64,000 nt of DNA. It comes from Candidatus Abyssobacteria bacterium SURF_5 (GTDB lineage Bacteria > Abyssobacteria > SURF-5). A program made the position numbers and the translations under genes. The notes beneath the pieces are model-generated. The model was not told the origin of the DNA and searched no databases. It worked only from the letters and a program-made list of their open reading frames with translations. Below, piece by piece: positions 10,153 through 60,971 of the stretch. The DNA is taken from assembly GCA_003598085.1 (NCBI GenBank), contig QZKU01000145.1:9123-73122 (forward strand). The letters are read 5' to 3'. How positions within the stretch are numbered: position 1 is the first letter of the stretch; the number at the start of each line of letters is the position of its first letter.

Positions 10153-10181
10153 TTGACTGCAAATTTTCCACACTGTATAAT
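10153..10181 (+). promoter_or_regulatory. Sigma-70 promoter, TTGACT-17 bp-TATAAT (consensus)
   Basis: -35 at 10153-10158, a 17-nt spacer, and -10 TATAAT at 10176-10181. It lies about 115 nt upstream of the ABC ATPase start. Confidence 0.55.
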
Positions 10182-10297
10182 GAGATATTCGATTATCGGG
10201 GGCCGCTTCTACATAGGCCGCCATTGGAGTATCCGCAGCTGTTATCCTGACAGGACCAGCGGGGAGCATCAATTGTCTACAGGGGGAGAAGTTTTCT

Positions 10298-12054: not shown

Positions 12055-12058
12055 GCGC

Positions 12059-13138: not shown

Positions 13139-13160
13139 ATCGCACCGAACAATTTTGAAG

Positions 13161-13210
13161 AACCCCCGGCCTCCTCAGCGCCGGTTGGAAGCCGGCAACG
13201 GGGGTTTTTC
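13161..13210 (+). terminator. Rho-independent terminator (nested GC hairpins then T5)
   Basis: AACCCCCG...GCCGGttggaaGCCGGC...CGGGGG TTTTT lies 25 nt after the stop at 13138. Confidence 0.6.
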
Positions 13211-13259
13211 CTCTTTCCACAGCCGGATCGGCTTCTGTTTTTACCGATATTAAGAGGAT

Positions 13260-13952: not shown

Positions 13953-13967
13953 ACGAGAAAGAAAACC

Positions 13968-23277: not shown

Positions 23278-23278
23278 T

Positions 23279-25288: not shown

Positions 25289-25289
25289 G

Positions 25290-40000: not shown

Positions 40001-40508
40001 GGTTCTGTGCACGGCCATGGAACCGCGGCCGGACGCCCTGGAGGTGGCCAGAATCTTCGGCCTATCACTCAGCGCCGACGGCTTCTTCATGGAAGAACAT
40101 CCGAAGCTCGAGCCGGTCTCGACCCCAACCTCCGGCGTCTTCCTCGCCGGCGCTTGCCAGGGTCCGAAGGACATAACTGATTCAGTCGCGCAGGCAAAAG
40201 CGGCCGCCAGCGAAGCGCAGGCGCTTTCCACCCTGGGGAAAGTGATCGTCCCGCCGATGATAAGCCATATCGACGAAGACATCTGCATCGGCTGTCAAGT
40301 CTGCATCGGGTTGTGCCCGTACTCTGCGATCGAATTCGACGAATTCAAAAAGGTTAGCGTGGTGAATGAGGCTGTTTGTAAAGGATGCGGGAGCTGCGCC
40401 GCCTACTGCCCGAGCGGCGCCGCCGACATACGCCATTTCACCCAAAAACAGATTTTCGGTGAAATCGAGGGAATCCTCGTAGGAGCCAAGGAGACACGCG
40501 ATGAGTAA
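37077..40508 (+). CDS. Large HdrA-like flavoprotein fused to a GltD/NfnB-like NAD(P)H-binding FAD domain (HdrL-like)
   Basis: 1143 aa. The N-terminal HdrA FAD fold is VVGGGITGMQASLDVAKAGYKVYLVE, with several 4Fe-4S motifs. An internal glutamate-synthase-small-subunit-like region reads VAIVGSGPAGLACAYFLARKGYHPTVFEALPEVGGML. The C-terminal HdrA ferredoxin part follows. Confidence 0.85.
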   Translation: MSREFPLREERIGFYICHCGINIAFKVRCAEVAEYIGTLPGVAVSRDYLFMCSDPGQEIIEKDIRELDLTRVVVASCSPRMHEHTFRAACARAGLNPFRAFHHVCVREHVSWVTLDEDQATEKAKLLARAGIRRVRYQSDLFPKTFPVNPNTLVVGGGITGMQASLDVAKAGYKVYLVERQATIGGHMLQYDKTFPTMDCAACIGTPKMVAVGQNPNIEILSLSEVEEISGFVGNFKVKVRKHARYVKADKCTGCAECTKYCPIIVPNEWDVNTKQRNAVYRPFPQAVPITFAIDKKDRGPCVQTCPAGTNVQGYVTMIREGKYKEALKIIMENLPLPGVLGRVCPAPCEKECRRGEVDEPVSIRNLKRFAADQADWETLELPEIDMKPPEEKVAIVGSGPAGLACAYFLARKGYHPTVFEALPEVGGMLRAGIPDYRLPPEVLNREVNYIRRLGVEIKTNAPIGGETTIESLLANGFKAVFLSTGAHNEFKLGVEGEDAAGVLKGISFLRDVNFCANGEVGKKAVVIGGGAVAMDVARVARRKGASEVHVYCLEKRHEMPAWVEEIEAAEAEGIEIHNAWGVKRILTNDAKVKGIEFKRCTAVFDENKRFSPQYDDSETITENCNTVLVAIGQRPDLSCLNGSKDVQLTRRGLIAADPVTLQTSKPGVFAGGEMYSGPSLVVQAVATGKEAAISIERYLKSEDLVLDRPERPKGENWAPIPEDVQKAARAKMPELAPADRVNGFVEVETGFTEEQARAEAARCLSCGVCCECKQCVPACEAKAIDHDAKDEIVTLDVGSIILATGFDIMDPTPMQEYGYGKYRNVLTSLEFERLSNATGPTSGKILLRDPNDRWNHTRPPKSVAFLHCVGSRDKNYHDYCSRTCCMYALKMAHLVKDKCGHDTQVFNFYIDMRCFGKGQEEFYRRIQDEGVRMVRGKAVEVTDKAEDPSEEGMLIVRAEDSLIGKMLRVPVEMVVLCTAMEPRPDALEVARIFGLSLSADGFFMEEHPKLEPVSTPTSGVFLAGACQGPKDITDSVAQAKAAASEAQALSTLGKVIVPPMISHIDEDICIGCQVCIGLCPYSAIEFDEFKKVSVVNEAVCKGCGSCAAYCPSGAADIRHFTQKQIFGEIEGILVGAKETRDE

Positions 40509-40929
40509 GGAGTTCGAACCCACAATTGTTGCTTTCCTCTGCAACTGGTGCACGTTCACCGCTGCGGACCTCGCCGGCACGTCGCGCCTCAGTTATCCCG
40601 AGAACGTCAAGATAATCCGCATGATGTGCAGCGGCATGGTCGATCCGCTCTATGTTCTCAAAGCCTTCATGGAGGGGGCGGACGGCGTTTTCATCGGAGG
40701 ATGCTGGCCCGGCGACTGCCATTATATCAACGGCAACCTGAAGGCGCGCCGGCGAGTGGCGTTGCTTACGGAAATTCTGAAGCAGTTCGGAATCGAGGAG
40801 GACAGGTTCTGGCTGCGCTGGGTTGCCGCCAGCGACGGCGTCATGTTCCAGGAGTTCTCCAAACAGATGACTGAAAAGCTCCGACAAATGGGGCCGAGCC
40901 CGCTCAGTGTCAATCAAACAATCGCGTGA
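40501..40929 (+). CDS. MvhD-like (methyl-viologen-reducing hydrogenase delta subunit family) protein
   Basis: 142 aa with the MvhD-type Cys pattern (CNWC...C..GC...C). It overlaps the HdrL stop by 8 nt. Confidence 0.8.
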   Translation: MSKEFEPTIVAFLCNWCTFTAADLAGTSRLSYPENVKIIRMMCSGMVDPLYVLKAFMEGADGVFIGGCWPGDCHYINGNLKARRRVALLTEILKQFGIEEDRFWLRWVAASDGVMFQEFSKQMTEKLRQMGPSPLSVNQTIA

Positions 40930-40951
40930 GGATTCGCTGAGGAGAATTGAG

Positions 40952-42088
40952 ATGACGGAATACAGCAAACTGGTTGCTCAAGATGGTTCGATAAACAAAT
41001 CGCTGGCCTCTTTTTTCAGGACCATGCTCGAGAAGAATGTCGTGGACGCCGTCCTCGTGCCGGCCCACCAGAATCCAAAGGGAGTCATGCAGACGCTGAT
41101 TACCGCCCCGGAAGCGCTCGATGCCGTTGACCCCTTCGCGCCTGTAGCGCCGACGAATTCGGCAAGACTCGTGACCCGGCTCACGAACGTCCCCTCCGGG
41201 AGGCCGGTGGCGGTGGTGATGCGGTCGTGCGAGATACGGGCGCTCCTCGAACTGGTCAAACTCAAGCAGGCGAACGTCGACGACCTCCTTTTGATCGGAA
41301 TTGACTGTCTCGGCAGATACGAAAATGCCGATTACTTGAAATACGAACAAGGCGGCGCCACGACCGAGGACTTCCTCAAAGCCGCTTGCGGAGACAAAGG
41401 AACCAAAAGCGCCGACGGGTTCGACGTTGCCGTCGCCTGCCGGATCTGCGAATATCCGGCGGCAGACAATGCGGATGTCCGCCTCTGCGTCATTGGCGCC
41501 TCTCCGGGCGAGGTCTTTGTCGAGTGGGCCACGGAGAAAGGGCTGAATGCACGCAAGGCGATGGGACTCGAAGCGGAAGCAGGCCCGGCCGGCCGCGACG
41601 CGGCGGTGCAACAGATCAAGAAAACGAGAACCGCGCAACGAGACAAGGTGTTCTCCGATATGTATGAGCACGTCGGGAGCATGGAGAAGCTGCGGGATCA
41701 TCTGGCTGGTTGCATAAATTGCTATAACTGCCGCGCGGCCTGCCCCGTCTGTTATTGCAAAGAATGCGTCTTCGTCACCGATACCTTCCGCCACCCCGGC
41801 GACCAATACCTCTCATGGGGCGATAAGCGCGGCTTCATGAAGATGCCAACCGAGACAGTGCTGTTCCACCTGACTCGCATGACTCACATGAGCGCGCTGT
41901 GCGTGGGCTGCGGCCAGTGCTCGAGCGCGTGCCCGAATGATATCCATGTGACCGAGCTTTTCAGGTCGGTCGCCAACAGGACTCAGGCCAGATTCGACTA
42001 CCATCCGGGCAGATCGCTCGATGAGCCTCAGCCGCTGGCGGTGTTCTATGCGGAAGAGCTTACGGAAGTAACCGGACAAGTTAAGTAG
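40952..42088 (+). CDS. FrhB/FdhB-family flavin/Fe-S protein (coenzyme F420 hydrogenase beta-subunit-like)
   Basis: A C-terminal 4Fe-4S dicluster (CINCYNCRAACP, CVGCGQCSSACP) follows an N-terminal FrhB-like fold. The start was taken at the ATG at 40952, which has a GAGGAG ribosome-binding site; the track start at 40907 overlaps mvhD. Confidence 0.7.
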   Translation: MTEYSKLVAQDGSINKSLASFFRTMLEKNVVDAVLVPAHQNPKGVMQTLITAPEALDAVDPFAPVAPTNSARLVTRLTNVPSGRPVAVVMRSCEIRALLELVKLKQANVDDLLLIGIDCLGRYENADYLKYEQGGATTEDFLKAACGDKGTKSADGFDVAVACRICEYPAADNADVRLCVIGASPGEVFVEWATEKGLNARKAMGLEAEAGPAGRDAAVQQIKKTRTAQRDKVFSDMYEHVGSMEKLRDHLAGCINCYNCRAACPVCYCKECVFVTDTFRHPGDQYLSWGDKRGFMKMPTETVLFHLTRMTHMSALCVGCGQCSSACPNDIHVTELFRSVANRTQARFDYHPGRSLDEPQPLAVFYAEELTEVTGQVK

Positions 42089-42097
42089 GAGAAACCA

Positions 42098-45000
42098 ATG
42101 ACTGAGGAAAACGCTGTCGGAACAGTGCTCGTCGTGGGCGCCGGCATCGCCGGAATCAAATCCGCCCTCGAATTGGCCGAGACGGGTTATAAAGTTATCC
42201 TTACCGACAATTCGCCTTCTGTCGGCGGCATCCTGCAAAAGCTCGACCATCAGTTCCCAACCGACCACTGCGGAATGTGCAGGATGCTGCCGCTGGTCGG
42301 ACGCGAACACGCGTCGCAGCACTGCATGCGCAAAAGCCTGTTCCATGACAACATCGAGATTCTTCCGTTCACCGAGATCACATCCGTTAAAGGAGACGCA
42401 GGCGCCTACACAGTGGAGCTGCTCAGACGGGCGCGGCATGTCAATACCGATATCTGCAACGGACTCGGCAAGTGCATCGACGTGTGCCCGGTGGAAGCGC
42501 CCGACGAATTCAATCAGGGCCTTACCCGGCGCAAAGCCATCTACAAGCCTGTCCCTCATAATGTCCCCCAAATGCTGCTCATAGATATGCAAGCCTGCAC
42601 CAGGTGCGGCGAGTGCGTGAAGGCGTGTCCGGTGAACGCGATCGACCTGGAGGCGCAGGACGAAGCGAGCCTGGTCGAGGTGAATGCAATAATACTCGCG
42701 GCCGGCGCGACTCTCTATGATCCCGCCACAGATGATGACGCGAAAGCATATGCGGTCTCGCCCGACGTCGTCAGCTCGTTGGCCTTCGAGCGCATCTTGA
42801 GCGGATCGGGCCTCTACGACGGGACGATCCGCCGCCCGTCGGATGGCAAGCCCGCCAAACGCATTGCCTGGATTCAATGCGTCGGCTCCCGCAACCGCAG
42901 GAAGGGCCGAGATTATTGCTCGTCCATTTGCTGCATGTTCGCGCTCAAAGAGGCGGTGCTCGCCCATGAAAAGGGAGGGCCGGACACCGAGACAACCATC
43001 TTTTACATGGATATGCGCACCTTCGGGAAGGAGTTTTATCAGTACCGCGAGCGGGCCGAACGCGAATACGGCGTGCGCCTTGTTCGCTGCCGCGTTCAGA
43101 GCGTGTTGCGGGAGGCCGACGGCTCGCTGCTGGTCCGATACCTCGATCAGAAAACCGGAGAATTTGTCGAAGACTCCTATGACATGGTGGTGCTTTCGAC
43201 CGGTCAGGCGCCTTTCGAAGACCATCGCAGGCTCGCCGAATTGCTCGGCTTGGATCGCGCGCCCTCGGGACTGCTCCCCCTGCTCGACTTCGAGAAAGTG
43301 AAGCTGGTGAAGCCGGGAATCTTTATCTGCGGCTCGCTGATGGGGCTCACCGACATCAGCGAGGCCATCACCAGCGGGATCGCAGCGGCAGGTGAAACAT
43401 CGAAAATGCTTCTTGCCTCCGGGATCAAAAGGCTGGAAGACGAGCCGGCTCCGGAACGGCCGGTGGACAAACAGGCTCCGCTTGTATCGGTCGTTCTGTG
43501 CAGTTGTAAAGGAGTCAAGGCGCCCGAAGGGCTCGACCTCGAGCCGCTGATCTCGACCATCAAGAAATATCCCGGAGTGGGTGAAGCTCATCTCGTGGAG
43601 GCGCTGTGCCGGGAAGAGGGAGAGCAGGAGCTTAAGGAAATCCTCGAGCAGACAAAATGCAACCGGCTCATCATCGGAGCCTGCCTCCCGTACGTGTACC
43701 GGCAGCGGTTCAGGAAGCTGGCTCAAACCGCAGGTTTCAATCCGGCCCTGGTGGAGATATTTGATCTGTTGAGCGCGGCGAGACATGGCCTGCCGGAGAC
43801 AAACGGGACCGATTGGGTGCAGTTGGCTTTAGAGGAAATGAGCGCGCTGCTCGAAAAACTTAAGCTGGCGCAGGCGCTTCACTCTCATGCTCTGCCCATC
43901 CATCAGACGGCGCTCGTGGTCGGCGGCGGCGTCGCAGGTATGCGAGCCGCCCTCTCCCTTGCCGATCGAGGGATCAAAACACACCTGGTGGAAAAATCCG
44001 ACCGGCTCGGCGGGCATGCGGCCAATGGATTGCATTACACGATTGACGGATTAGACCCCGCCGGCCTGGTCTCCGAACTGAACCGGAAAATCGAGGAGCA
44101 GCGGAACCTGACAGTCCATTTGAACAGCGAGATTATTGGCTCCAAGGGTGCGCTCGGACGCTTCACTACCGAAATCCGCAGCAGCGACAGCAACCAAAAA
44201 CTCGAGCACGGCGCGGTGATCATAGCCACCGGCGGTCATGAAGCCAAAACCACTGAATACGCCTACGGCCAGAGCGAGCGCGTTGTGACCCAGGTTGAAC
44301 TGGAGGAGCGACTGACAGCCGGGGAACTCGATGCGGCAACTCTGGAGAACGTGGTGATGATTCAATGCGTCGGCTCGCGGGAGAAAGGCGCGCGCGAGTA
44401 CTGCAGCCGCATCTGCTGCGCGGCCGCATTGAAGAACGCATTCAAGATCCTTGAGAAGAATCCTGCGGCCCGCATCTACATCCTCAATCGGGACATGATG
44501 ACCTACGGCTTCCTCGAGAAATACTATACCAGGGCGCGAGGCGAAGGGATCATGTTCATCAATTATGAACTCGATCAGAAGCCGCAGGTGGAGATCGTTG
44601 ACGACAAGCCGCTCGTGAAATTCACCGATCCGGTCCTCCAGATGCCGCTCGAGGTGACCGCCGATCTGCTGGCGCTCGCCACCGGCATACAGCCCCCTTC
44701 ATCCAACGAACAGCTTGCCCAAAGCTTCGGCTTGCCGCTCACGTCGGAAGGCTTCTTTCAGGAGGCCGATTCGAAATGGCGGCCGGTCGAATTCAAGAAG
44801 CTGGGCGTCTTTCTCGCGGGCACGGCGCACAGCCCGCTGCCACTGAACGAATCGCTCATGCAGGCTGAGGCCGCGGCGCAGAAAGCCTACGCCCATATCT
44901 CCCGACGCACGATTCAAACGGCACGAGCCGTATCCAAAGTGCACGACGCCATCTGCGCCCGCTGCCAAATATGCGTGGAAATCTGCCCGTACAATGCGCG

Positions 45001-45199
45001 CGCGTTTGATCCTGAACAGAACTGCATCGTCGTCGACTCGGCAGCATGCCAGGCCTGCGGCCTGTGCGCGGTCGCTTGCCCGAACAAAGCCGCGGAAGTG
45101 CAGGGCTGGAGCGAGAAACAGACGCTGGCGATAATCGACGCGAAGCTGAGAAGCACCGGCCATTCGCGGCGGCGGGCCGGCAAGGAGGTAACAACGTGA
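42098..45199 (+). CDS. Tandem HdrA-like fusion (two HdrA FAD modules separated by an MvhD-like Cys insert)
   Basis: 1033 aa. The first HdrA start reads VLVVGAGIAGIKSALELAETGYKVIL. The second module, around residue 605, reads ALVVGGGVAGMRAALSLADRGIKTHLVE. Several CxxCxxCxxxCP motifs are present. The internal LCSCKGVKAP...IIGACLPYVY segment is MvhD/FlpD-like. Confidence 0.85.
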   Translation: MTEENAVGTVLVVGAGIAGIKSALELAETGYKVILTDNSPSVGGILQKLDHQFPTDHCGMCRMLPLVGREHASQHCMRKSLFHDNIEILPFTEITSVKGDAGAYTVELLRRARHVNTDICNGLGKCIDVCPVEAPDEFNQGLTRRKAIYKPVPHNVPQMLLIDMQACTRCGECVKACPVNAIDLEAQDEASLVEVNAIILAAGATLYDPATDDDAKAYAVSPDVVSSLAFERILSGSGLYDGTIRRPSDGKPAKRIAWIQCVGSRNRRKGRDYCSSICCMFALKEAVLAHEKGGPDTETTIFYMDMRTFGKEFYQYRERAEREYGVRLVRCRVQSVLREADGSLLVRYLDQKTGEFVEDSYDMVVLSTGQAPFEDHRRLAELLGLDRAPSGLLPLLDFEKVKLVKPGIFICGSLMGLTDISEAITSGIAAAGETSKMLLASGIKRLEDEPAPERPVDKQAPLVSVVLCSCKGVKAPEGLDLEPLISTIKKYPGVGEAHLVEALCREEGEQELKEILEQTKCNRLIIGACLPYVYRQRFRKLAQTAGFNPALVEIFDLLSAARHGLPETNGTDWVQLALEEMSALLEKLKLAQALHSHALPIHQTALVVGGGVAGMRAALSLADRGIKTHLVEKSDRLGGHAANGLHYTIDGLDPAGLVSELNRKIEEQRNLTVHLNSEIIGSKGALGRFTTEIRSSDSNQKLEHGAVIIATGGHEAKTTEYAYGQSERVVTQVELEERLTAGELDAATLENVVMIQCVGSREKGAREYCSRICCAAALKNAFKILEKNPAARIYILNRDMMTYGFLEKYYTRARGEGIMFINYELDQKPQVEIVDDKPLVKFTDPVLQMPLEVTADLLALATGIQPPSSNEQLAQSFGLPLTSEGFFQEADSKWRPVEFKKLGVFLAGTAHSPLPLNESLMQAEAAAQKAYAHISRRTIQTARAVSKVHDAICARCQICVEICPYNARAFDPEQNCIVVDSAACQACGLCAVACPNKAAEVQGWSEKQTLAIIDAKLRSTGHSRRRAGKEVTT

Positions 45200-51913: not shown

Positions 51914-52408
51914 TTACTGTTCTCGCTGAACGTAGAATTTCTCTTTCAGCCTGCGCTCGACCACCTCGGGAACGAACGCGCTGATATCTCCGCCGAACTC
52001 TATCAGTTCTTTCACCAGGCTCGAGCTGATGAACGAATAGTTTTCATGTGTCATCAAGAAAATCGTCTCAAAGTTGTCATTCAATTTCCGATTCGTCAAG
52101 GCCATCTGGAATTCGAATTCAAAATCGGAAAATGCGCGCAGGCCCCGCACGACGCAGCACGCACCACATCTGCGCACGTAATCGACGAGCAGGCCGTCAA
52201 ACGAATCGACGCGCACCGTCGGATATTCCATGGTCAACTCGCGGATCATCTTCAGCCTTTCCTGAATCGAGAACAAGCCGGCTTTGCGAATATTATGGGC
52301 AACGGCGACAATAAGTTCGTCGAACAGACCCACGGCGCGCTCGATAAGATCGATATGGCCGTAGGTGATAGGGTCAAAACTGCCAGGATAGATAGCCGTT
52401 CGCTTCAT
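51914..52408 (-). CDS. coaD: Phosphopantetheine adenylyltransferase
   Basis: IYPGSFDPITYGHIDLIERA (the nucleotidyltransferase H/T-x-G-H motif). Length is 164 aa. Confidence 0.9.
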   Translation of the reverse strand: MKRTAIYPGSFDPITYGHIDLIERAVGLFDELIVAVAHNIRKAGLFSIQERLKMIRELTMEYPTVRVDSFDGLLVDYVRRCGACCVVRGLRAFSDFEFEFQMALTNRKLNDNFETIFLMTHENYSFISSSLVKELIEFGGDISAFVPEVVERRLKEKFYVQREQ

Positions 52409-53592
52409 GCCAAATCTCCTAAATCCCTTCTTGCCGCATATTTTGCCGCGTCATAAACCGCCTTCAGAGGTATGTTCCGATTCCGGGCAAGCGCCTTGCA
52501 ATCTTCGAATTCCGGCGACACCGAAAGCGTCCGTTCCTGTCCCGTTCCGATCTTCACCCTCACCTTCCCCCATTCGGTCTCCACCTCGATCACCCGCCGG
52601 TGCAGTTTCAGCCGCGCCTCACGATGATAGCGGATGCCGAAGGTTGTGGATTCGGAAAAAATGATCTCGGCCATCGCAGCGGTTCGGGACGGCTCGCACA
52701 ATATGGTGAGCAGCGTACCCGGTCGCGTCTTTTTCGACTGCGTCCCGGAAAGATAAACCTCGAGGGCTCCGTTCTCGAACAGCCGCTCCATGAGGTATTC
52801 GAAATTTTCAGGATTCATGTCGTCTATGGTGGTGTTCATGACCACAATGTCATCCGCGGCGTACGCATCCGCCGGCTCGGCAATGAGAGCGCGCAACAGG
52901 TTCGGCCAATCCGGGAAATCATTCTTGCCGGCGCCATAACCCTGTGCGAGCACCGTCTGCGGAGGAATCGGGCCGAAGCCGGACGCCAGCGATCGCAAAA
53001 GGACCGCCCCCGTCGGCGTCGCCAACTCCGCCTGTGGTCCTCTGGAATAGATAGGTATTCCCTCGAGCAGTTTCATTGTCGCCGGAGCGGGAACCGGCAG
53101 AACGCCGTGCCTGCACTCCACGAAACCGCCGCCGACGTTCACCGGCGAGGCCTGTACCTCCTGGATCCCCAATTTGTCCAGGGCAATCAGAGTGCCGACC
53201 ACGTCCACAATAGCGTCTATGGCGCCGACTTCATGAAAATGGATTTTATCCGGAGTAGTGGCATGAAGCGCCGCTTCCGTTTCGGCCAGGAACGAGAAAA
53301 TCCGCTTTGCCTTCTCCACAATCGGCTCGGCAAGCGAGCTGCGATCGAGAAGGCTCTGAATCTGGTGGAGTCCGCGCTCGCCCGGCCGTTCTTCGTCCAC
53401 GTGAACGAAGAAGTTGGTAGCGCTTAGATGTCGCCGCATCGTCTTCTCGGCATGCAGATGATATCCTTCAAGCGGCACGAGCCGAAGGCCTTCGCGCAGG
53501 GCATCGAGTTCCAGACCGGCATCGATCAACGAGCCGAGAATCATGTCTCCGCTGACGCCGGAAAAACAGTCAAGGTACAGGCAGCGGCGCAC
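52405..53592 (-). CDS. larC: LarC-family nickel insertion protein (DUF111)
   Basis: The N-terminus LYLDCFSGVSGDMILGSLIDAGL is characteristic of LarC. Length is 395 aa. It overlaps coaD by 4 nt. Confidence 0.8.
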   Translation of the reverse strand: MRRCLYLDCFSGVSGDMILGSLIDAGLELDALREGLRLVPLEGYHLHAEKTMRRHLSATNFFVHVDEERPGERGLHQIQSLLDRSSLAEPIVEKAKRIFSFLAETEAALHATTPDKIHFHEVGAIDAIVDVVGTLIALDKLGIQEVQASPVNVGGGFVECRHGVLPVPAPATMKLLEGIPIYSRGPQAELATPTGAVLLRSLASGFGPIPPQTVLAQGYGAGKNDFPDWPNLLRALIAEPADAYAADDIVVMNTTIDDMNPENFEYLMERLFENGALEVYLSGTQSKKTRPGTLLTILCEPSRTAAMAEIIFSESTTFGIRYHREARLKLHRRVIEVETEWGKVRVKIGTGQERTLSVSPEFEDCKALARNRNIPLKAVYDAAKYAARRDLGDLA

Positions 53593-53623
53593 GTGTTACA
53601 TTCTCCGTGAGGTCACACGACCC

Positions 53624-54373
53624 CTATTTTTGCCGGGCGATAAGGCTGGCGAAGTAACCGGCGCCAAACCCGTTGTCGATGTTCACCACCGCAACGCCGG
53701 GCGAACAGGTATTCAGCATTCCCAGGAGCGCGGCCAGCCCATCAAAACTCGCGCCGTACCCAACGCTCGTGGGAACGGCGACTACAGGGCATTCTACCAG
53801 ACCGCCCACCACGCTTGCAAGCGCGCCCTCCATTCCGGCCGCCACCACCAACGCGTCCGCCTTCGCTATCTCTTTCCTGCGGTCGAAAAGCCGGTGGATG
53901 CCGGCCACGCCCACGTCGAAGATGCGCCTGACGCGGCAGCCCATCATCTCAGAGGTCAAGGCAGCCTCCTCGGCGACCGGAATGTCCGAGGTGCCCGCCG
54001 TTATGACCGTGACTGCCCCCTTTTTCCGCTTGATCGGATGCAGAATGATGGTCATCACGCGCGCGTCCTGATGGTAAACCGCCGTGGGGTGCACCTGGCG
54101 GACCGCCTCATAGATTTCGCGCGAAACCCGTGTCGCCAGCACGTTTCCATCGCGTTCGATCATCTTCCCCGTGATCGCCACCACCTGCTCCTTGGTTTTC
54201 CTTTCGCACAAGATGACTTCCGGAAAGCCCCTTCTCAAATGGCGGTGATGGTCGAGCTTGGCGAAACCGAGGTCCTCATACGGGAGCGACTTCAACGCGG
54301 AAACCGCCTCTTCAACGCTCACCTCGCCGCGTGACACTGCGGCAATAAGAGAGCGCAGTTTATCTGGATGCAT
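53624..54373 (-). CDS. larB: LarB-like (PurE-fold) nickel-pincer-cofactor biosynthesis carboxylase/hydrolase
   Basis: The C-terminal half, VTVITAGTSDIPVAEEA...VVAAGMEGALASVVGGLVECPVVAVPTS, is the PurE/AIR-carboxylase fold. The N-terminal extension is as in LarB. Confidence 0.75.
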   Translation of the reverse strand: MHPDKLRSLIAAVSRGEVSVEEAVSALKSLPYEDLGFAKLDHHRHLRRGFPEVILCERKTKEQVVAITGKMIERDGNVLATRVSREIYEAVRQVHPTAVYHQDARVMTIILHPIKRKKGAVTVITAGTSDIPVAEEAALTSEMMGCRVRRIFDVGVAGIHRLFDRRKEIAKADALVVAAGMEGALASVVGGLVECPVVAVPTSVGYGASFDGLAALLGMLNTCSPGVAVVNIDNGFGAGYFASLIARQK

Positions 54374-54388: not shown

Positions 54389-57300
54389 TCAGATTTTCTT
54401 TTTGCTGGCTCTTTTGACGGCGGCGCCGAAGATCGGCTCCTTTTTGTACTTCTTCGACATACCGATCATCAGCAGGATATCCCGCCCCAGAACCTCATCT
54501 ATTATAGCGCGAAGATATCCGAATGTGGAAGAGGGCAGTTTGGTGACGCTGTCGCAGTCGTCGATGAGGATCACATGCGACTTGATCAGCCGGTTCAGCA
54601 GGCCGTTCCAGTCGAACGCCTGCTTTTTCGAGAGAACCGTCACAAGCCGCTCGATCGAGAGGGAGGAAACCGGCCCGGTGAATACGCCTTGCAGCCGGTG
54701 GGCCAACGCATTGAAGAAGTGGTTGCGGCGCTGGCGGTCGTCTTCCATGACCAGCAAAGGAAACTTGTTGCGCCAGCGCTTGTTGGGGTTCTTGAAAATC
54801 TCCTCGAATTCCTCGAACAGCTCTTTCCCCTGGAAATTGGCGCTTGTCAACGCGGTATTCGCCTGCAGGAACTCCTCGAAGAAATCTTTTTTCACCTCCG
54901 GGGCGGCCGGCTCCGGCGAAGGCGCCGTCTCCGCCGCACGCGTCTCAGCTTCCTGTTTTTCCTGCTGTCCGGCGAACGGAATCCGGGCAACATGAACGAA
55001 AGCCTCAATCGCTTCCTTCTGCTCTTCTTGCACTTGAGCATCAACCTCCAGTTTTGCCAACAGTCCAGCCTCAATAAAATGCAGCATGCTTTCCTCGATA
55101 CTCTGCATCTTTATCGGAGGCACTTCCGAAGCAATGACTATCTGGGTCCCGCTCTTCAGCATCGCGGAGAGCAATCCGTATAGAGATGCCTGTATCTCCC
55201 GGGGAACATCGGAAATCTCGAAATCGTCTAGAATGAGCAGCCGCAGGCTCCTCGGCCATTTCTCCAGATTCTCGCGCTCCCTTTTCATGCGCTCGATAAG
55301 CGAGCCGAGCGAAATTACCACGGCGCTCAATTTCGGGTTCTGTTTGGTGGCCAGTAATCCGAGCGCGTGCATGATATGCGTCTTTCCCGCGCCGGACTGC
55401 CCGTATATGCAAAGCGGGTTATACAGCGTTCCGGGACTCTTGGCTATTTTCTCCGCCATCGTTATCGTGAAACTGTTCGCCTCGCTGCCCCTGAATCCCG
55501 CAAAATCATGCAACCATTCCACCGGCTCGAACTGCACGTCGCCGGCCGGTTCTTCCGGCTCAGCCTGCGCGTCGCTCGCATCGGCAGCCGGCTCTTCCGC
55601 CGATGCCGGAGGAGGCGAAACGTCGGCCTCCTGCTCCGCCGCCGTCGGGAGTTTGGCGCTGTCAGGCTGAGACGCCTGTTCATGCTCGAGCGTGGTGAGA
55701 CGCCCGCGCAGGACATCGTTTTCCTTTCGCTGCCGGAGTAGGAGCTCTTCATACTCCTGCCGCACCTTCGCGAGTTGGGCGTCGGCGGTTTGAGCATGCT
55801 CTTCCAGAGATCTGGCGGCTTCCTTTTGCGCGGCGGACAGGCGCTCTATTTCCTTATCCTTCGAAGCGACTATCTCCCGGGCCGACTCCCGACCGCGTTG
55901 TTCCGCCGCTTGCAGCATATCGTCTTTTTTAGCGGTAATCCGCTCCAGTTCCTGAATGCGGGCAAGAGCGCCTGCATCCTCTTGCTCGACTTGCGCCCGC
56001 AGCTTCGTCAGTTCTTCTTGCAACGCCTTGATCTGATCGTCGCGAGACTTGAGCGCCTGCTCTGTCTTTTTCTTCTCCGACTGCAGCTTGCTTCCGCTCT
56101 TCTCGGCCTTGACCATTTCGGCTCTCAGTTTGTCGTAGTCGACTTGAAGCTCCGAATAATCGTGGCGTACCGCCGCCAGCGCGCGCTCCTTGGCCGTCAA
56201 TTCTTTCTCCAGCGCTGAAAAATGGCCCTGCGCCTCCGCCCCTTGAGCGGTGCTTTGCGAAAAACTCTCCCGCAACGCCTCAAGCGCCTTTTGCGACTCG
56301 GCCACGCGCAGGTCTTTCTCCTCGATCAGGGTCGCCAGCCGCGCCGCATCCTGCTCGGCCAGCTCCCGCAGTTCGACCTGTCTTTCCAGGTCCTGCTGCG
56401 CCTCGTTCATCTTCTTCTTTAACTTCTGCACCTGTTCGGATAGCGACTTCATCTCGAGCTCGGCGGCGCTACTTGCGTCGGAATGCGCCTTCTCGCGCGC
56501 GGTCGATTCCAGCCGCTGGCGCTCGAGTCGTTCGGTCAATGCAGCCTTTTCCTGCTCGAATCGCGACAGTAACTCGCCTTCGCGCGCCTGCGCCTCTCTC
56601 AGTTGAACGCGAGCCTCCTGCAGACGCTCTCCGGCCGCCTGGACCGCAGCTTCCGCCTCGTGCGTAACCTCCTCCACCCGTGCGGCAACTTCCTGTTCTT
56701 TGGCGGCGAGCGAAGCCTTTTCGTTTTCAGCGGCGGCGAGTTCAGCCCGCAGCGCCGCCAGCGCCTCCTCGCTCGATTGTATCCGCCGCTCATAGTCGCC
56801 GAGCCGACTTTCGAATTCCCGAACCTGTTCGTTCCGCTGAGTCAACTGCGTCTCGAGCTCGCTCGCGCGCTCCCTGGCTTCCTGTATCTGCTTATCGAAC
56901 AGATCCCGCGCGGCCGCGGACGAATCTTCCGCCTGCTGCCTCTCTTCCTTTACGGCCGCCAGCTCGTGCGCGAGTTCCGAGACTCGCCGCTCGAACTCAT
57001 CGCCGCGCTCGTTTGCCGCCACAATATCTTCGAACGTTTTCTGCAGCTCATCGTTCCGGCGTTTCAGCTCGTCTTTCAGCTTCAGGATATGCTCGGCCTC
57101 GCCCTTTTCCTTCGCATCCAAAAGCTGATCGCGCTGGCGCACGCGGTCCTCGAGATCAGAAACGTGGGTCTTTAATCGCTTAATGATGCCGGCCGATTCC
57201 TGAACTTCGCGCTGTGAGGCGGCGATTTTTTCCGCGAGATCCTTCTCATGCAAGGCGAGCTCGTCGCGTTGTCGCTCGAGGCGTTCCTCCCAACTCTTCT

Positions 57301-59533
57301 GCGCTTCCTCAAATTGTCTTCCTATTTCCTCCGCGCGCGCTTCGGCCTCTTCCGCTTCCGCTTTTGCCTGGTTCAGAATCTCTTCGTTCCTTTGCAGCTT
57401 GGCGGTGGCTTCCTCGAGCGATTTCGAGAGGTTCTGCTCAGAAGCCTCTTTCTCTTTCAGGACAGCCTTCAACTGTTCGATCTCGTCGTTCAGCTCGGCC
57501 GCCAGCATCTTCCGTTGCTCGCGTGTCTCCTTCAGGACCGCTTCCTGCTTCTTGCGTTCCAACTCCGCCGCATGCAACTCGTCATCCAGCTTCTTCACCT
57601 GCTCATGAAACGCTCGAATACGCTCTGCATCCTCTCGTTCCTTGAGCAGGAGAGCCTGCTCGCGTTCCGACACATGATTCTGCAGCTTCAGGTTTTCGGA
57701 AGCCAATTCCTCAAGTTTCTTGCTTTTTTCGCCGATCTCCCGTTCATGCTGCTCCACCATCGATTTCGAGGAAGCGAGTTCCGCAGTGATTTCCGAGAGG
57801 TCCTGTTTCATCTTCTCGCGTTCGGAGCGCACTCGCTCGAGCTCCTCGCGCGCGCGCTGATGGTTCTGAGAGACTTCTTTCAGGCGCTCCTCGATCTCAG
57901 CACTAGCGGATTCCGCCGCACTCGCGCGCTTCGACAGCGTGGCGTTTTTTTGTTCCCGCGATTGGGAAAGTGCGCGTTCGGCCTCGAGCGCCTGCGAGAG
58001 AGCGTTGATCTCCTCCTGCAACTGCTGCTCCCGAGCGGCCGCCTCCGAGAGCTTGGCGGAACTCTCCTCCGTCCTCTGCGCCCGAATGTGTTCAAGGTTG
58101 TCCTCGAGTTCCTTGATGCGAGCGTTTAATTGCTCCGCCGCCTTCTTGAGCAGCTCGTTCTCTTCGCGCGTCTCTGCATAGCTATCCTCGAGGTCCAACT
58201 TCTCTCTTTGCTCCTTCGAGCTGCGCTTTTCACGCTCCTCTCGAAGCAGCACAAGTTTTTCGTCTTTGTCCTCGAGCTGGATTTTCAGGGCGAGCAGATC
58301 ATCTTCTTTTTCTTTCTGCAGTTGCTCGATTCGGGCTTGCAGGGCCTGCAATTTCTGCTCCGCCTGCTTCTGGTGGTCTGCGTGGAGGGCAAGATCGCTG
58401 AAATTCTTTTTCAGCAGTTGCTCCAGCTCCGAAATTCGTGCTTCTTTTTCCGACAGAGCCGCGTCGCGATCCCTCAGGGCCTCCTCGGCGCGCTCTTCCC
58501 GCTCTTTCAGCTCCTTCGACAACTGGGCGATTTCGCTCGAGATAACCTTGCCCTGTGATTTCAGCAGATTATTTTTCTCGTCAAGCTCTCCCTTGATCTT
58601 CTTTAATCTCAAGGTGAGCGAAGCATTGTCAGCGGCAGTCGCCTTCTCACGAGCCGCAAGTTCTTCAATCTGGCGCTGCATCTGCTGAACGATTTCATCA
58701 TGCGAGCTCAATTTCTGCTCGTACTCGCGCAAGGTGACCTGGAGACCGTCCTCGTGTTTCTTCGCCTGGCGCTGCATCCACGTGCTGAGAATCTCCTCCG
58801 TCGTGGCAGTATCCTTCTGCTCGCCCGCCTGCTCGCGAATGGCGGATAGAAATTCCGCCACCTTCTCCTTCGTGAGGGGCTGGCGATTGAGCGTGGAGAA
58901 GGTCTTGAGGTGGCCGGGCAACCGTTTCAGGTAAGCCGAATTCTTCCCGGCCTCCTTCATCAGCATCTGCATAACATCGAGATCAAGCTCCAGGTCCAGA
59001 CGAGCACACTCGCTCTTCAAAATCTTGAGGCGCGTTTCCGGAAGCGGCGGCACGAGGTGCGCGTCGATTCCGCCGCGGAGCCTGCTGAGAAACCGCTTGT
59101 CGAACCCGCGCAGGTCCTTGATCGGAACCGAAGACGCCAGCAGAATCTGCTTTCCGCTGTCTACAAAGGAATTGAAGAGGGAAGAAAACTTGTCTTTGGC
59201 GGCGGGAACATCCAGAATCCGCTCGAAATCATCGACAATCAGAAAGTCCTTTCGAACGAGTTCACGGGCCAACGCTTCATCGGAAGACGCACCGTTTCCG
59301 AATACCTGCTCGACCGTGTCTTCTTCAGATACAAAAAGCAGGGATATCTCGGGATGCGCCCGGGACAATTCGGTGCTTACCGCGGTAAGCAGATGCGTTT
59401 TTCCGGAACCCGCCTCGCCGTGGATCAGCAGAGGCGAGTATCCTTTTTCGAGATTGACGACCGCTTTACACAGAGCGACGGCAAATTTGTTGGAATCGTC
59501 GACCTCGAATGAATCAAGCATAACTTCAGGCAC
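54389..59533 (-). CDS. Giant (about 1715 aa) protein: N-terminal DnaA-type AAA+ module, about 1000-aa coiled coil, second DnaA-type AAA+ module and a third degenerate one at the C-terminus
   Basis: N-terminal module: LLIHGEAGSGKTHLL (Walker A), FLIVDDFERI (Walker B), and RFLSRLRGGIDAHLVPPLPETRLKILK, which matches the DnaA box VI-VII region. Residues 270-1300 or so are E/K/L/Q-rich heptads. Second module: Walker A CIYGQSGAGKTHIM at about 55376-55402, then LLILDDFE. The C-terminal segment LVMEDD...VILIDDCDSV has no P-loop. The start was taken at the GTG at 59533, which has a GGAGGA ribosome-binding site; the track start at 59629 overlaps tldD by about 100 nt. Confidence 0.85.
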   Translation of the reverse strand: MPEVMLDSFEVDDSNKFAVALCKAVVNLEKGYSPLLIHGEAGSGKTHLLTAVSTELSRAHPEISLLFVSEEDTVEQVFGNGASSDEALARELVRKDFLIVDDFERILDVPAAKDKFSSLFNSFVDSGKQILLASSVPIKDLRGFDKRFLSRLRGGIDAHLVPPLPETRLKILKSECARLDLELDLDVMQMLMKEAGKNSAYLKRLPGHLKTFSTLNRQPLTKEKVAEFLSAIREQAGEQKDTATTEEILSTWMQRQAKKHEDGLQVTLREYEQKLSSHDEIVQQMQRQIEELAAREKATAADNASLTLRLKKIKGELDEKNNLLKSQGKVISSEIAQLSKELKEREERAEEALRDRDAALSEKEARISELEQLLKKNFSDLALHADHQKQAEQKLQALQARIEQLQKEKEDDLLALKIQLEDKDEKLVLLREEREKRSSKEQREKLDLEDSYAETREENELLKKAAEQLNARIKELEDNLEHIRAQRTEESSAKLSEAAAREQQLQEEINALSQALEAERALSQSREQKNATLSKRASAAESASAEIEERLKEVSQNHQRAREELERVRSEREKMKQDLSEITAELASSKSMVEQHEREIGEKSKKLEELASENLKLQNHVSEREQALLLKEREDAERIRAFHEQVKKLDDELHAAELERKKQEAVLKETREQRKMLAAELNDEIEQLKAVLKEKEASEQNLSKSLEEATAKLQRNEEILNQAKAEAEEAEARAEEIGRQFEEAQKSWEERLERQRDELALHEKDLAEKIAASQREVQESAGIIKRLKTHVSDLEDRVRQRDQLLDAKEKGEAEHILKLKDELKRRNDELQKTFEDIVAANERGDEFERRVSELAHELAAVKEERQQAEDSSAAARDLFDKQIQEARERASELETQLTQRNEQVREFESRLGDYERRIQSSEEALAALRAELAAAENEKASLAAKEQEVAARVEEVTHEAEAAVQAAGERLQEARVQLREAQAREGELLSRFEQEKAALTERLERQRLESTAREKAHSDASSAAELEMKSLSEQVQKLKKKMNEAQQDLERQVELRELAEQDAARLATLIEEKDLRVAESQKALEALRESFSQSTAQGAEAQGHFSALEKELTAKERALAAVRHDYSELQVDYDKLRAEMVKAEKSGSKLQSEKKKTEQALKSRDDQIKALQEELTKLRAQVEQEDAGALARIQELERITAKKDDMLQAAEQRGRESAREIVASKDKEIERLSAAQKEAARSLEEHAQTADAQLAKVRQEYEELLLRQRKENDVLRGRLTTLEHEQASQPDSAKLPTAAEQEADVSPPPASAEEPAADASDAQAEPEEPAGDVQFEPVEWLHDFAGFRGSEANSFTITMAEKIAKSPGTLYNPLCIYGQSGAGKTHIMHALGLLATKQNPKLSAVVISLGSLIERMKRERENLEKWPRSLRLLILDDFEISDVPREIQASLYGLLSAMLKSGTQIVIASEVPPIKMQSIEESMLHFIEAGLLAKLEVDAQVQEEQKEAIEAFVHVARIPFAGQQEKQEAETRAAETAPSPEPAAPEVKKDFFEEFLQANTALTSANFQGKELFEEFEEIFKNPNKRWRNKFPLLVMEDDRQRRNHFFNALAHRLQGVFTGPVSSLSIERLVTVLSKKQAFDWNGLLNRLIKSHVILIDDCDSVTKLPSSTFGYLRAIIDEVLGRDILLMIGMSKKYKKEPIFGAAVKRASKKKI

Positions 59534-60908
59534 TGGTTCCTCCGACCGTAATCCCTCGTATCCGAAGCGTCGGCTGTGCGTCGGAAACCGGGGCCCCCTG
59601 CCCGTCTTTTCCGCACGTTCCGAGGCCAAAACCGAGATCGTTGGCCACCATGTCTATTCCCGATAAAACCTTGAGCGAGTTTCCGATCAAAGACGCACCC
59701 CGAACCGGTTCCTTGATTTCCCCATTGCGGATCAGGTAGCCCTCGCTTACCTCAAACATGAAATCCCCGCTCACCGTGTTCACCTGTCCGCCGCCCATCC
59801 GCCGCACGAACAGACCTTTGTCGGTCGCTGATATGACATCCTCCGGGCGCGCACCGCCGGGAACAATCAAGGTGTTCGTCATGCGGGGGATCGGCCGGTG
59901 GCGGTACGACTCGCGACGTCCGTTGCCCGTGGAGGCACGGCCCTCCTTGCGCGCGCCAATGACGTCGTACAGGTAGCTCTTCAAAACTCCATTCTCCACG
60001 AGCACCGTGCGCTCGGCCGGCGTCCCCTCGTCGTCCACCTTGAACGTGCCCCGCCTCCGCGGGATCGTGGCATCGTCGTGCACCGAAACCGATTCCGAAG
60101 CGATCCGCTGTCCGATCTTGCCCGCAAACACCGAGAGACCCTTCTGCACCAGGTCGGCCTCAAGACCGTGCCCGACCGCCTCGTGGATCATCGTTCCGCC
60201 GGCTTCGGCGCCGACAACAACGGGCATGATACCCGTCGGCGCCGGCGATGCGTCCAGCATTCGCAGCGCCTGCTCGGCCGCTGTTCGCGCCACCTTCGCG
60301 GGGGTCGTATCTTCAAACATCTCGAATCCCATTGTCCCGCCGACCGGCTCGTAGCCCGTCTGAATAAGGTCTCCTCGCTTTGCGACCGAATGCACAAGAA
60401 AGATGATGTGGTCGCGCTCATCGGTCACGAGCAGACCGCTGGAGTTCGCGATGATGACGCGCTGCCGCGAGTCACCATACCGAACGAGTACCTGCACAAC
60501 CTCTTTGCCGGCGCTCCATGCGGTTTCGTTCGCTTCCAGCACCTTCGAGACTTTTTCACTCGCAGGAACCGCCGACGGATACTTTATCCTCTTCTTCTCG
60601 AAGCTCACCTTGACGGCTTCGGGAAAGGTGTATTTTTGAACCGGCGCACGGATGCCTTTGCTCACCCGCTCGGCCAGATCCCGCAAGGCCGCCGCCGTCA
60701 ACTGGTTGGTGGAAGCATATGCGGTCATATCTCCCACAACCACACGCAGACCGGCGCCACGATCGGTTCCGCTGATTACGCGCTCTATCTTGTTCGCTTC
60801 ACAACCGATCGAAACGGAAAACCGTTCCTCAATGAAAAGCTCTGCAAAATCTCCGCCATTTTTCAGCGCTAACTGCAAAATCTTTGGAATTTCCCGAACT
60901 ATTTTCAT
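59526..60908 (-). CDS. tldD: TldD-family metalloprotease
   Basis: 460 aa. HEAVGHGLE (HExxxH) is typical of TldD rather than PmbA. An AAGGAG ribosome-binding site is present. Confidence 0.85.
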   Translation of the reverse strand: MKIVREIPKILQLALKNGGDFAELFIEERFSVSIGCEANKIERVISGTDRGAGLRVVVGDMTAYASTNQLTAAALRDLAERVSKGIRAPVQKYTFPEAVKVSFEKKRIKYPSAVPASEKVSKVLEANETAWSAGKEVVQVLVRYGDSRQRVIIANSSGLLVTDERDHIIFLVHSVAKRGDLIQTGYEPVGGTMGFEMFEDTTPAKVARTAAEQALRMLDASPAPTGIMPVVVGAEAGGTMIHEAVGHGLEADLVQKGLSVFAGKIGQRIASESVSVHDDATIPRRRGTFKVDDEGTPAERTVLVENGVLKSYLYDVIGARKEGRASTGNGRRESYRHRPIPRMTNTLIVPGGARPEDVISATDKGLFVRRMGGGQVNTVSGDFMFEVSEGYLIRNGEIKEPVRGASLIGNSLKVLSGIDMVANDLGFGLGTCGKDGQGAPVSDAQPTLRIRGITVGGTSA

Positions 60909-60942: not shown

Positions 60943-60971
60943 ATTATAGAAACGCTTCTTCGGGAAGTCAA
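60943..60971 (-). promoter_or_regulatory. Sigma-70 promoter (minus strand TTGACT-17 bp-TATAAT) driving tldD and downstream genes
   Basis: Reverse complement: -35 TTGACT at 60971-60966, a 17-nt spacer, and -10 TATAAT at 60948-60943. It lies about 35 nt upstream of the tldD ATG. Confidence 0.55.

Follow-up and report, generated by a model that had tools for sequence, protein, structure and literature searches.

A giant coiled-coil protein with DnaA-type AAA+ modules at both ends in Candidatus Abyssobacteria bacterium SURF_5

Gene and product

A stretch of 64,000 nucleotides (nt) from Candidatus Abyssobacteria bacterium SURF_5 (assembly GCA_003598085.1, contig QZKU01000145.1, positions 9,123 to 73,122 of the forward strand), referred to here as the window, carries on its minus strand a giant gene whose predicted product bears DnaA-type AAA+ modules at both ends of a long coiled-coil rod. 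From the N terminus, the parts are an AAA+ head with a lid, the rod, an acidic linker, a second AAA+ base together with a pseudo-AAA+ base, and a polybasic tail. The positions of these parts, of their motifs and of the adjoining genes are given in Table 1, with all coordinates counted from the first nucleotide of the window.

The uninterrupted minus-strand open reading frame (ORF) spans 54389..59629, and its probable start is a GTG at 59533, from which a product of 1714 amino acids (aa) would be translated. This start is favoured because the sequence GGAGG precedes it by 5 nt, an overlap of 8 nt joins it to the TGA of the tldD-like gene upstream, and the resulting N terminus (MPEV) agrees with the MP[DE]L starts of the homologues in the family alignment. 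The NCBI annotation uses an ATG at 59521, four codons downstream, which gives 1710 aa (P0001); the GTG restores the conserved MP[DE]x N terminus and the same 8-nt overlap with the tldD stop codon that is found in five related loci (L001-L005). Apart from the annotated start, the product is 100% identical to hypothetical protein C4520_22055 of the same organism. Over the giant gene the plus strand shows strongly negative AT and GC skew, which reflects the purine-rich Glu, Lys and Gln codons of the minus strand. None of the long ORFs antisense to the gene had a family match.

A word-indexed search returned eight full-length homologues of 1567-1830 aa, which were 33-38% identical by the best BLASTP segment and 37-41% identical over a MAFFT alignment. 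Together with the window protein they form the set of nine homologues used below.

Table 1. Positions of the giant gene, the parts and motifs of its product, and adjacent genes in the window (pLDDT, predicted local distance difference test score)
Feature	Residues	Nucleotides	Strand	Basis or remark
Whole gene, 1714 codons and stop		54389..59533	-	ORF list, start context
N-terminal DnaA domain-III module, AAA+ base and lid	1-256	58766..59533	-	PF00308, TIGR00362, 8bv3
N module Walker A, GEAGSGKT	39-46	59396..59419	-	family alignment, translation
N module Walker B, FLIVDD	97-102	59228..59245	-	aligned to DnaA DDIQ; followed by family-specific invariant E104-R105
N module box VII, RFLSRLR	147-153	59075..59095	-	alignment to 8btg/8bv3
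N module sensor-II position, NSAYLK	198-203	58925..58942	-	alignment to B. subtilis DnaA NIREL
Coiled-coil rod	257-1289	55667..58765	-	proline-free, heptad contrast, a/d residues
Rod interval W252-E371				32-119 aa
Rod interval L476-E571				84-320 aa (main hot spot)
Rod interval E809-L928				45 aa in eight homologues; 119 in window protein (74 extra, aa 833-906)
74-aa rod insertion	833-906	56816..57037	-	window protein only; alignment A1 columns 1068-1141
Rod interval L928-E1072				55-144 aa
Acidic Pro/Ala/Glu-rich flexible linker	1290-1339	55517..55666	-	sequence, family alignment; variable in family
Second DnaA-type AAA+ base (C module), without lid	1340-1508	55010..55516	-	PF00308, TIGR00362, 2z4r, hhalign, AlphaFold
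C module Walker A, GQSGAGKT	1378-1385	55379..55402	-	family alignment, translation
C module Walker B, LLILDD	1432-1437	55223..55240	-	family alignment, translation
C module box VII-like segment, ESMLHFIEAGLL	1481-1492	55058..55093	-	gapless alignment
Linker, predicted disordered	1509-1547	54893..55009	-	pLDDT <50, model residues 175-214
Third domain, degenerate DnaA-type AAA+ base (predicted)	1548-1692	54458..54892	-
PLLVMEDDRQRRNHFF instead of P-loop in third domain	1592-1607	54713..54760	-	translation
Walker-B-like VILIDDCDS in third domain	1654-1662	54548..54574	-	translation
Conserved polybasic C-terminal tail, SKKYKKEPIFGAAVKRASKKKI	1693-1714	54392..54457	-	family alignment
tldD-like metalloprotease gene, upstream		59526..60908	-	PmbA_TldD domains
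Sigma-70-like promoter match TTGACT-17-TATAAT (11/12), upstream of tldD		60943..60971	-	consensus match
Downstream block larB-larC-coaD		51914..54373	-
larB		53624..54373	-
larC		52405..53592	-
coaD		51914..52408	-

AAA+ modules and tail

Both terminal modules were recognized by Pfam model PF00308 (Bac_DnaA, cut-off 23 bits), which matched aa 5-156 of the N-terminal piece with 90.7 bits (E 1.6e-25) and aa ~1343-1492 of the C-terminal piece with 86.2 bits (E 3.7e-24). TIGR00362 aligned aa 4-250 of the N module with model positions 108-353, corresponding to base and lid; on the C module it covered only positions 105-268, so that this module consists of the base without a lid. The best matches among solved structures were domain III of Bacillus subtilis DnaA (8bv3, E 1.6e-22) for the N module and Thermotoga DnaA (2z4r, E 7e-20) for the C module. 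The N module scored 141 bits with TIGR00362 vs 74 bits with the Hda model, and a direct hhalign comparison of the C module with the N module gave a probability of 99.3%, i.e. clear homology. No other P-loop family accounted for the heads, which agrees with the DnaA-type modules at both ends proposed in a preliminary description of this gene made from the sequence alone; all motifs quoted there were found again, and their coordinates were checked by translation.

The N module is 55-58% identical among homologues, and its invariant residues cluster in the P-loop, Walker B and box VII. In Walker A, residues G39, G42, G44, K45 and T46 are invariant in the nine homologues, as are R147, R151 and R153 of box VII, the first two of which align with R260 and R264 of B. 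subtilis DnaA (arginine finger). The position of the sensor-II arginine is taken by A200 (A, L, Q, D or K among the nine), and the sensor-I aspartate of DnaA aligns with a small polar residue. The module can thus probably bind nucleotide and contact its neighbours, and is probably a poor hydrolase: it looks like an ATP-binding switch with slow hydrolysis, because Walker A, Walker B and the finger are kept and the sensor-II arginine and sensor-I aspartate are lost.

In the C module, G1378, G1383, K1384 and T1385 of the P-loop and L1432 and D1436 of Walker B are invariant in the family alignment. An AlphaFold model of the module shows the element order b-a-b-(helical insert)-b-a-b-a-b. The helical insertion between strands b2 and b3 of the AAA+ core, which is the initiator-specific motif, is present, and the giant protein belongs structurally to the initiator clade of AAA+ proteins (DnaA, Orc/Cdc6, DnaC, IstB).

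For the third domain, sequence profiles do not prove a DnaA copy. The AlphaFold model of aa 1548-1714 (pLDDT 88.7; predicted template modelling score, pTM, 0.87) shows four strands in AAA+ order together with the helical insert of the initiator clade; the domain stops after the fourth strand, and therefore lacks box VII, and runs straight into the polybasic tail. By this predicted structure it is a degenerate, P-loop-less DnaA-type core, and the third copy claimed in the preliminary description is borne out on that evidence.

The tail motif SKxYKKEPxFG..KK..KK is nearly invariant and is kept even in the distant relative P0017 described below; the last 26 aa carry a net charge of +7 to +8 in nine of nine homologues. 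An amphipathic membrane-targeting helix was considered for the tail and rejected because of the low hydrophobic moment (0.13-0.30), and the tail is called polybasic only.

Coiled-coil rod

Residues 220-1289 contain no proline, cysteine or globular insert, and six residue types (E, A, L, R, K and Q) account for 71% of the rod. Its heptad contrast reaches 0.73 vs 0.47 +/- 0.02 in shuffled rods (about 13 standard deviations), with single-register runs of up to 200 residues, and the hydrophobic periodicity peaks at 3.5 and 2.33 residues. Heptad contrast, core residues and periodicity all agree with the coiled-coil bridge of about 1030 aa that had been described from the translation. Over the nine homologues, position a is occupied by L (36%), I (16%), A (11%) and V (7%) and position d by L (39%), A (14%) and V (5%), with Glu, Arg and Lys at positions e and g. 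Beta-branched residues at a and not at d, with Leu at d, are the classical mark of a two-stranded parallel coiled coil; the observed residues (I+V 23% at a vs V 5% at d, Leu at d) fit such a coil.

Rod lengths were compared as distances between 18 invariant landmarks in the nine homologues. Most landmark intervals are identical to the residue in all nine, and length varies in the four intervals listed in Table 1, with L476-E571, L928-E1072 and the window-specific 74 aa changing independently of one another. At the main hot spot (A1 columns 493-700) recent tandem duplications of 88-aa units have lengthened the rod, and copies of such units were recognized in P0008 (aa 354-430 vs 442-518) and P0002 (aa 439-510 vs 527-598) with 61% and 52% identity. 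All homologues also share older repeats at a 177-aa offset; in the window protein, aa 708-788 match aa 959-1039 at an offset of 251 aa, which is 177 plus the 74-aa insertion. These repeats were detected with masked sliding windows, a blastp of the whole protein against itself having given the diagonal only. The span from W252 to W1340, which includes the acidic linker of about 50 residues, measures 932-1205 residues, and at 0.15 nm per residue the estimated rod length is about 140-180 nm.

The lengths on either side of a conserved central island are 529-733 aa on the N-terminal side and 350-531 aa on the C-terminal side, and are uncorrelated. P0006 and P0008, for example, lie 236 aa apart at L476-E571 and about 150 aa apart over the N-terminal half, and 16 aa apart in the C-terminal half. 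In SMC, MukB and Rad50 the two arms must stay matched. An extended rod is therefore favoured over an SMC-like fold-back on the basis of unmatched arm lengths, the missing hinge and the parallel-type a/d residues.

Homologues and the wider class

Nine loci emerged from a scan of 185,579 species genomes; they all lie in Abyssubacteria-like metagenome genomes, among them SURF_17 and one genome labelled Poribacteria; a scan of metagenome contigs added two further loci. In an exhaustive HMMER scan of 1.84 billion cluster representatives with a profile of the N module, the giant family ranked first (446-532 bits). The next match was P0017 (219 bits), a protein of 1248 aa from a more distant lineage with the same parts in the same order, a rod of about 600 aa, the same tail motif and heads that are about 32% identical. 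The three-module signature of the family, namely the parts in this order, the tail, and larB-larC-coaD downstream, was found in alignments A1 and A5 and at loci L001-L009, L015 and L019. A word-indexed search for relatives of the third domain outside the family returned only fragments of the same family, and no wider distribution was found. A protein search with the N-module profile, aimed at named relatives and at the DnaA of the lineage itself, likewise yielded fragments only.

The same unbroken frame and order of parts occur in at least 12 independent assemblies obtained from different samples with different pipelines. In Candidatus Hydrogenedentota bacterium JSV16 the gene is present only as 'partial' fragments, P0012 (C-terminal 337 aa) and P0177 (N-terminal 452 aa). 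The family is probably under-counted in metagenome genomes, since the repetitive rod breaks assemblies.

Among the best 150 matches of the HMMER scan, about 45 clusters (50% identity) contained two matched stretches. Most of these proteins are 480-710 aa long, the longer ones being P0093 (865 aa), P0020 (1990 aa) and P0023 (1876 aa). Among the matches listed, tandem proteins scored 145-219 bits vs 142 bits for the best DnaA of ordinary layout (P0046; most others 122-140). Other long matches were single DnaA-III modules fused to TPR repeats, DUF835 or a zinc ribbon.

Three short tandem proteins (P0018, P0021 and P0024) contain two DnaA domain-III modules, each complete, with about 170 helical residues as the linker between them and no domain I or IV, and keep Walker A and B, RLRSRFEGGL and the sensor-II motif NxRELxG in both modules. 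P0018 is RMH68997.1, an 'AAA family ATPase' of 697 aa from Gemmatimonadota, and the P0024 cluster measures 651 aa. The gene for RMH68997.1 (locus L017) lies downstream of two bactofilin genes. P0020 and P0023 have a different plan, with an MshEN domain, a DnaA-III module, a helical repeat spacer of about 1200 aa and a second DnaA-III module. The gene for P0020 (L018, GCA_030620115.1, genes 2359-13973) has three further genes of MshEN or MshEN+DnaA type as neighbours; the cluster resembles those of type IV pili and also encodes a prepilin peptidase, PilB-/PilT-type ATPases, PilC and PilS.

The only names given to tandem proteins in the databases were 'AAA family ATPase' and 'chromosomal replication initiator protein'. 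Like the giant protein, they have two domain-III modules and a helical spacer and lack domains I and IV; they differ from it in having neither pseudo-module nor polybasic tail and in their gene contexts, and the short ones also in keeping lid and sensor II in both modules and in their much shorter spacer. By these sequence comparisons the giant protein stands at the far end of a broader class of tandem DnaA-module proteins, hitherto undescribed and predicted to be non-initiators.

Relation to known proteins

The DnaA domain-III AAA+ fold, for which 1l8q, 2hcb, 2z4r, 8bv3 and 8btg served as reference structures, is common to all three globular modules. Modules 1 and 2 keep the Walker A (GxxGxGKTH) and Walker B (DD) motifs of DnaA, and module 1 also the box VII arginines and the lid. 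The giant protein differs from DnaA in having three modules per chain, with a coiled coil of 1030 aa between the first two, in the missing lid of module 2 and missing P-loop of module 3, and in the loss of the sensor-II arginine and sensor-I aspartate from module 1. The DNA-binding domain IV (PF08299, Bac_DnaA_C) gave no match at E <= 1, and the alignments to TIGR00362 (437 positions) stop at 353 and 268. The DnaA_N model of domain I (PF11638) likewise gave no match, and only four residues precede the domain III core. The whole protein scored 221.1 bits with TIGR00362 against a cut-off of 343.9. An identity as DnaA was rejected on the missing domains I and IV, this score and the lost sensor II.

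Hda/HdaA (TIGR03420; 3bos, 3sc3) is likewise of DnaA-III type without domain IV and with the arginine finger kept, but is a single module of about 230 aa, whereas the giant protein is about seven times larger and has three modules. The beta-clamp-binding motif at the N terminus of Hda is of the QL[SP]LPL type. Such a motif was not found at the N terminus here, which reads MPEVMLDSFEVDD, the start of the domain III core. With TIGR03420 the giant protein reached 110.8 bits (cut-off 194.8), and an identity as Hda was rejected on this score, the missing clamp-binding motif and the size. Models of helicase loaders stayed below their cut-offs (NF038214 55.6 bits vs 200; PF01695 20.9-23.7 bits vs 24.1), with DnaA scoring higher throughout, and an identity as IstB, DnaC or DnaI was rejected for this reason.

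SMC, MukB and Rad50 have rods of comparable length with nucleotide-binding heads at both chain termini, but these heads are ABC halves, whereas here both ends carry full AAA+ modules, each equipped with Walker A and B. They also have a hinge or zinc hook and matched arms, neither of which exists in the giant protein. The SMC model TIGR02168 gave 50 bits (cut-off 567) and matched rod residues only, and an identity as SMC, Rad50 or MukB was rejected because of the absent ABC heads and hinge and the unmatched arms. The comparison with SMC rods drawn in the preliminary description thus holds for length; beyond that the likeness is superficial, and the indel pattern argues against a folded-back rod. 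Among long parallel rods with NTPase heads or a repeat-built rod (myosin II, kinesin; the bacterial coiled-coil-rich Scy, FilP and crescentin), the giant protein is comparable in its very long heptad rod of duplicated units and in ends or heads that could control assembly. It differs in that its heads are AAA+ modules, not of myosin or kinesin type, and sit at both ends, and no sequence relationship exists beyond coiled-coil composition.

A literature search found no description of the giant architecture or of the tandem DnaA-III class, in keeping with the earlier remark that no characterised protein has such an architecture. The Abyssubacteria genome paper makes no mention of the giant protein (PMC6121073). 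Its parts are all known, their arrangement has no precedent in the literature searched, and the protein is not regarded as categorically new. Judged by the predicted product, the gene encodes a lineage-specific DnaA paralogue and not a replication initiator.

Proposed function

DnaA-family AAA+ modules associate head to tail, the ATP bound at one module being contacted by the box VII arginine of the next. In the giant protein the invariant residues are those of the nucleotide site and of the inter-module interface, a pattern that ATP-dependent association would predict. It is tentatively proposed, with a confidence somewhat short of even, that the protein acts as an ATP-gated long tether or polymer serving as a scaffold of the nucleoid or envelope, and not in origin firing. 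In this model the rod would be an extended, two-stranded, in-register coiled coil carrying the two kinds of heads at opposite ends, and the heads would be ATP-gated association modules in which the box VII arginine of a neighbour contacts the bound ATP, the N module serving as the switch that hydrolyses slowly. The pseudo-module may cap one face of the lidless C head. ATP would then control either the pairing of heads within a dimer or the head-to-tail joining of rods, with the finger of the N module reaching into the C site, and joined rods would form long tethers or filaments. Through its +8 tail, the C-terminal end could be attached to an anionic surface, namely DNA or an acidic membrane. 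A further step, according to which the protein is the founding member of a class of nucleotide-gated polymers or tethers, with struts of about 150 nm joined through DnaA-type interfaces, capped by the pseudo-module and anchored by the tail, is considered unlikely, although not far-fetched.

Several observations weigh against the proposed tether. By gapless alignment, the arginine-finger position of the C module is occupied by the invariant F1486; the preceding residue 1485 is Arg in eight of the nine homologues and in P0017, and His in the window protein (codon 55079-55081), so that an arginine finger in this module is doubtful. In the helical insert of the N module the first helix is replaced by a variable Gly/Asn-rich loop, and the residue that presumably matches the arginine of Aquifex DnaA contacting single-stranded DNA is Lys in seven of the nine homologues and Ala here; canonical DnaA-like binding of single-stranded DNA by the N module is doubtful for these two reasons. 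The AlphaFold model of the C module together with the pseudo-module reached a pTM of only 0.48, which leaves the packing of one on the other unsupported. The arguments from the a/d signature and from the indels are indirect, the alignment of the low-complexity rod being uncertain at indel edges, and a myosin-like charge periodicity, as in staggered filament packing, was sought in the rod and not found. Gene context was rejected as a functional clue, the neighbours being a housekeeping mix (protease, nickel-pincer cofactor, CoA synthesis) from which tldD is lost in L015; for the roles suggested in the preliminary description (an organiser of chromosome, replication origin or cytoskeleton, or a large signalling scaffold) these neighbours offer no theme.

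An SMC/Rad50-like fold-back is considered unlikely. The rod would form an antiparallel hairpin that brings the N, C and pseudo-modules into one composite AAA+ assembly, where the finger of the N module would complement the ATP site of the C module, with ATP driving the opening and closing of a loop that entraps or bridges DNA. The motifs of the two heads are indeed complementary, with finger and lid in the N module and a P-loop, no lid and a doubtful finger in the C module. The rod has a conserved island close to its midpoint (aa ~790-830), the islands at aa ~407-435 and ~1072-1120 of the window protein are roughly symmetric about aa ~760, and weak matches to SMC models exist at the coiled-coil level. 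Other observations weigh against a hairpin. The arms measure 733 vs 455, 529 vs 439 and 681 vs 350 aa in individual homologues, unmatched and uncorrelated, indels of 88-236 aa in one half are not mirrored in the other, and the central and C-proximal islands of P0017 are only about 50 aa apart. No hinge domain, zinc hook, proline or Gly-rich turn is found in the rod, the tandem duplication of units would shift any hairpin apex, and the beta-branched residues at a and not at d fit parallel coils.

A role as a regulator of replication initiation appears rather improbable. The N module, and possibly the C module, would co-assemble with the organism's own DnaA-ATP, capping or sequestering DnaA filaments or stimulating DnaA-ATP hydrolysis as Hda does, and rod and tail would tether the origin complex to the nucleoid or membrane. 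Hda is a DnaA-III-only protein able to act on DnaA through the AAA+ interface, which favours such a role, as do the invariant box VII arginines and the heads, which are closest to DnaA among solved structures and curated families (see the TIGR00362 and Hda scores of the N module). Against it stand the missing N-terminal clamp-binding motif and the absence of a dnaA, dnaN or oriC-type context from the 11 loci examined and from the 64-kb window. Moreover, the nearest relatives in the HMMER scan are other tandem DnaA-III proteins, some of them in pilus-type or bactofilin neighbourhoods, and a 150-nm rod has no obvious role in chemistry resembling regulatory DnaA inactivation (RIDA).

A scaffold of the envelope or pilus, i.e. 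an extended strut in the cytoplasm that arranges machinery of the envelope (a type IV pilus or secretion ATPases, for example) while its tail binds acidic phospholipids, is very unlikely. The giants with MshEN domains, P0020 and P0023, share the plan, and P0020 is encoded in the pilus-type cluster; two T2SSE-type ATPase genes lie about 8 kb downstream of the P0017 gene in L015, and P0018 is encoded near the bactofilin genes. The heads of these relatives, however, show only about 30% identity, and all their other parts differ. No pilus or secretion genes were found near the giant gene in the window or in the Abyssubacteria loci, the window protein has no MshEN domain, and the tail is polybasic and not amphipathic. 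Both the regulator and the envelope-scaffold roles are compatible with the observed architecture.

That the gene is an artefact (a chimeric mis-assembly, as had been allowed for at the outset, a fusion of separate genes or a decaying pseudogene) is next to impossible. The split JSV16 fragments show that the rod can break assemblies, but the frame and order of parts recur in the at least 12 independent assemblies, heads and tail are under purifying selection, most rod spacings are exactly kept and the antisense ORFs lack family matches.

Significance

To our knowledge, characterised DnaA-type AAA+ proteins (DnaA, Hda, DnaC/DnaI, IstB, Orc/Cdc6) have roles in transposition, in helicase loading, or in origin firing and its control. 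In the giant protein the DnaA module occurs three times per chain, at the ends of a rod of SMC or myosin length, and because the giant gene has been selected as a core gene of a candidate lineage, the module would also serve purposes outside initiation. The tandem class is larger and has gone unrecognised, with two DnaA modules, no DNA-binding domain and, for some members, pilus-type neighbourhoods. The automatic label 'chromosomal replication initiator protein DnaA' can mislead origin prediction and replication-gene counts in metagenome genomes.

If the proposed ATP-gated tether is correct, it would represent a new type of long-range structural element in bacterial cell biology and a tractable in vitro system, with heads and tail that can be expressed separately. 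If the further step to a polymer class is correct, the DnaA-type ATPase fold would have become the switch that controls assembly of a structure resembling a cytoskeleton or bridging the nucleoid, and the tandem DnaA-III proteins would be shorter versions of the same principle. The giant family is confined to uncultivated lineages and is of interest to specialists in AAA+ proteins, replication and the cytoskeleton.

Genomic context

The giant gene is the second in a minus-strand series of a tldD-like gene, the giant gene, larB, larC, coaD and a gene for a permease of the xanthine/uracil family, and is separated from larB by a gap of 15 nt. The tldD-like product scored 331 bits with NF008006 (TldD), which is below the cut-off. 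The promoter match upstream of the tldD-like gene is likely to be the operon promoter. A second sigma-70-like match (TCCACA-17-TATAAT, 10/12) at 54501-54529 on the minus strand, inside the 3' end of the giant gene and some 130 nt ahead of larB, may serve larB-larC-coaD as an internal promoter.

Loci L001-L005 have the same block with the identical tldD overlap, and their flanks outside the block differ. In L015, which encodes P0017, larB-larC-coaD follow directly downstream and tldD is absent; L019 has the same downstream order. The linkage to tldD and larBC, whose conservation the preliminary description had asked about, therefore held in part: larB and larC, together with coaD, are kept in every locus examined, whereas tldD is kept only within Abyssubacteria. 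In L015 an ORF of 57 aa (9835-10008), not TldD-like, overlaps the start of the giant gene by the same 8 nt.

Sequence identity within Abyssubacteria amounts to 67-85% for the neighbouring gene products, compared with 49-57% for the heads and 37-41% for the whole protein; for L015 it is 44-58% for the neighbours and about 32% for the heads. From this pattern, and from the synteny in more than 10 loci, the giant gene is a vertically inherited core chromosomal gene, predicted to be co-transcribed with its neighbours and evolving faster than they do.

A search with PADLOC gave only coiled-coil-level matches to LmuB and JetC (E ~1e-4), and a defence ATPase (STAND/AVAST, Lamassu, Wadjet) was rejected on the negative PADLOC result and the conserved housekeeping context. 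The rest of the window is ordinary chromosome, with genes for GlnE, PheT, sensor kinases, an MMPL transporter and HdrA-like oxidoreductases. Two large genes for HdrA-like flavin/iron-sulfur oxidoreductases (1143 and 1033 aa) flank a ferredoxin-like gene at 37077-45199, and a run of hybrid sensor kinase genes is located at 20731-26885; both groups are ordinary for the lineage and unrelated to the giant gene.

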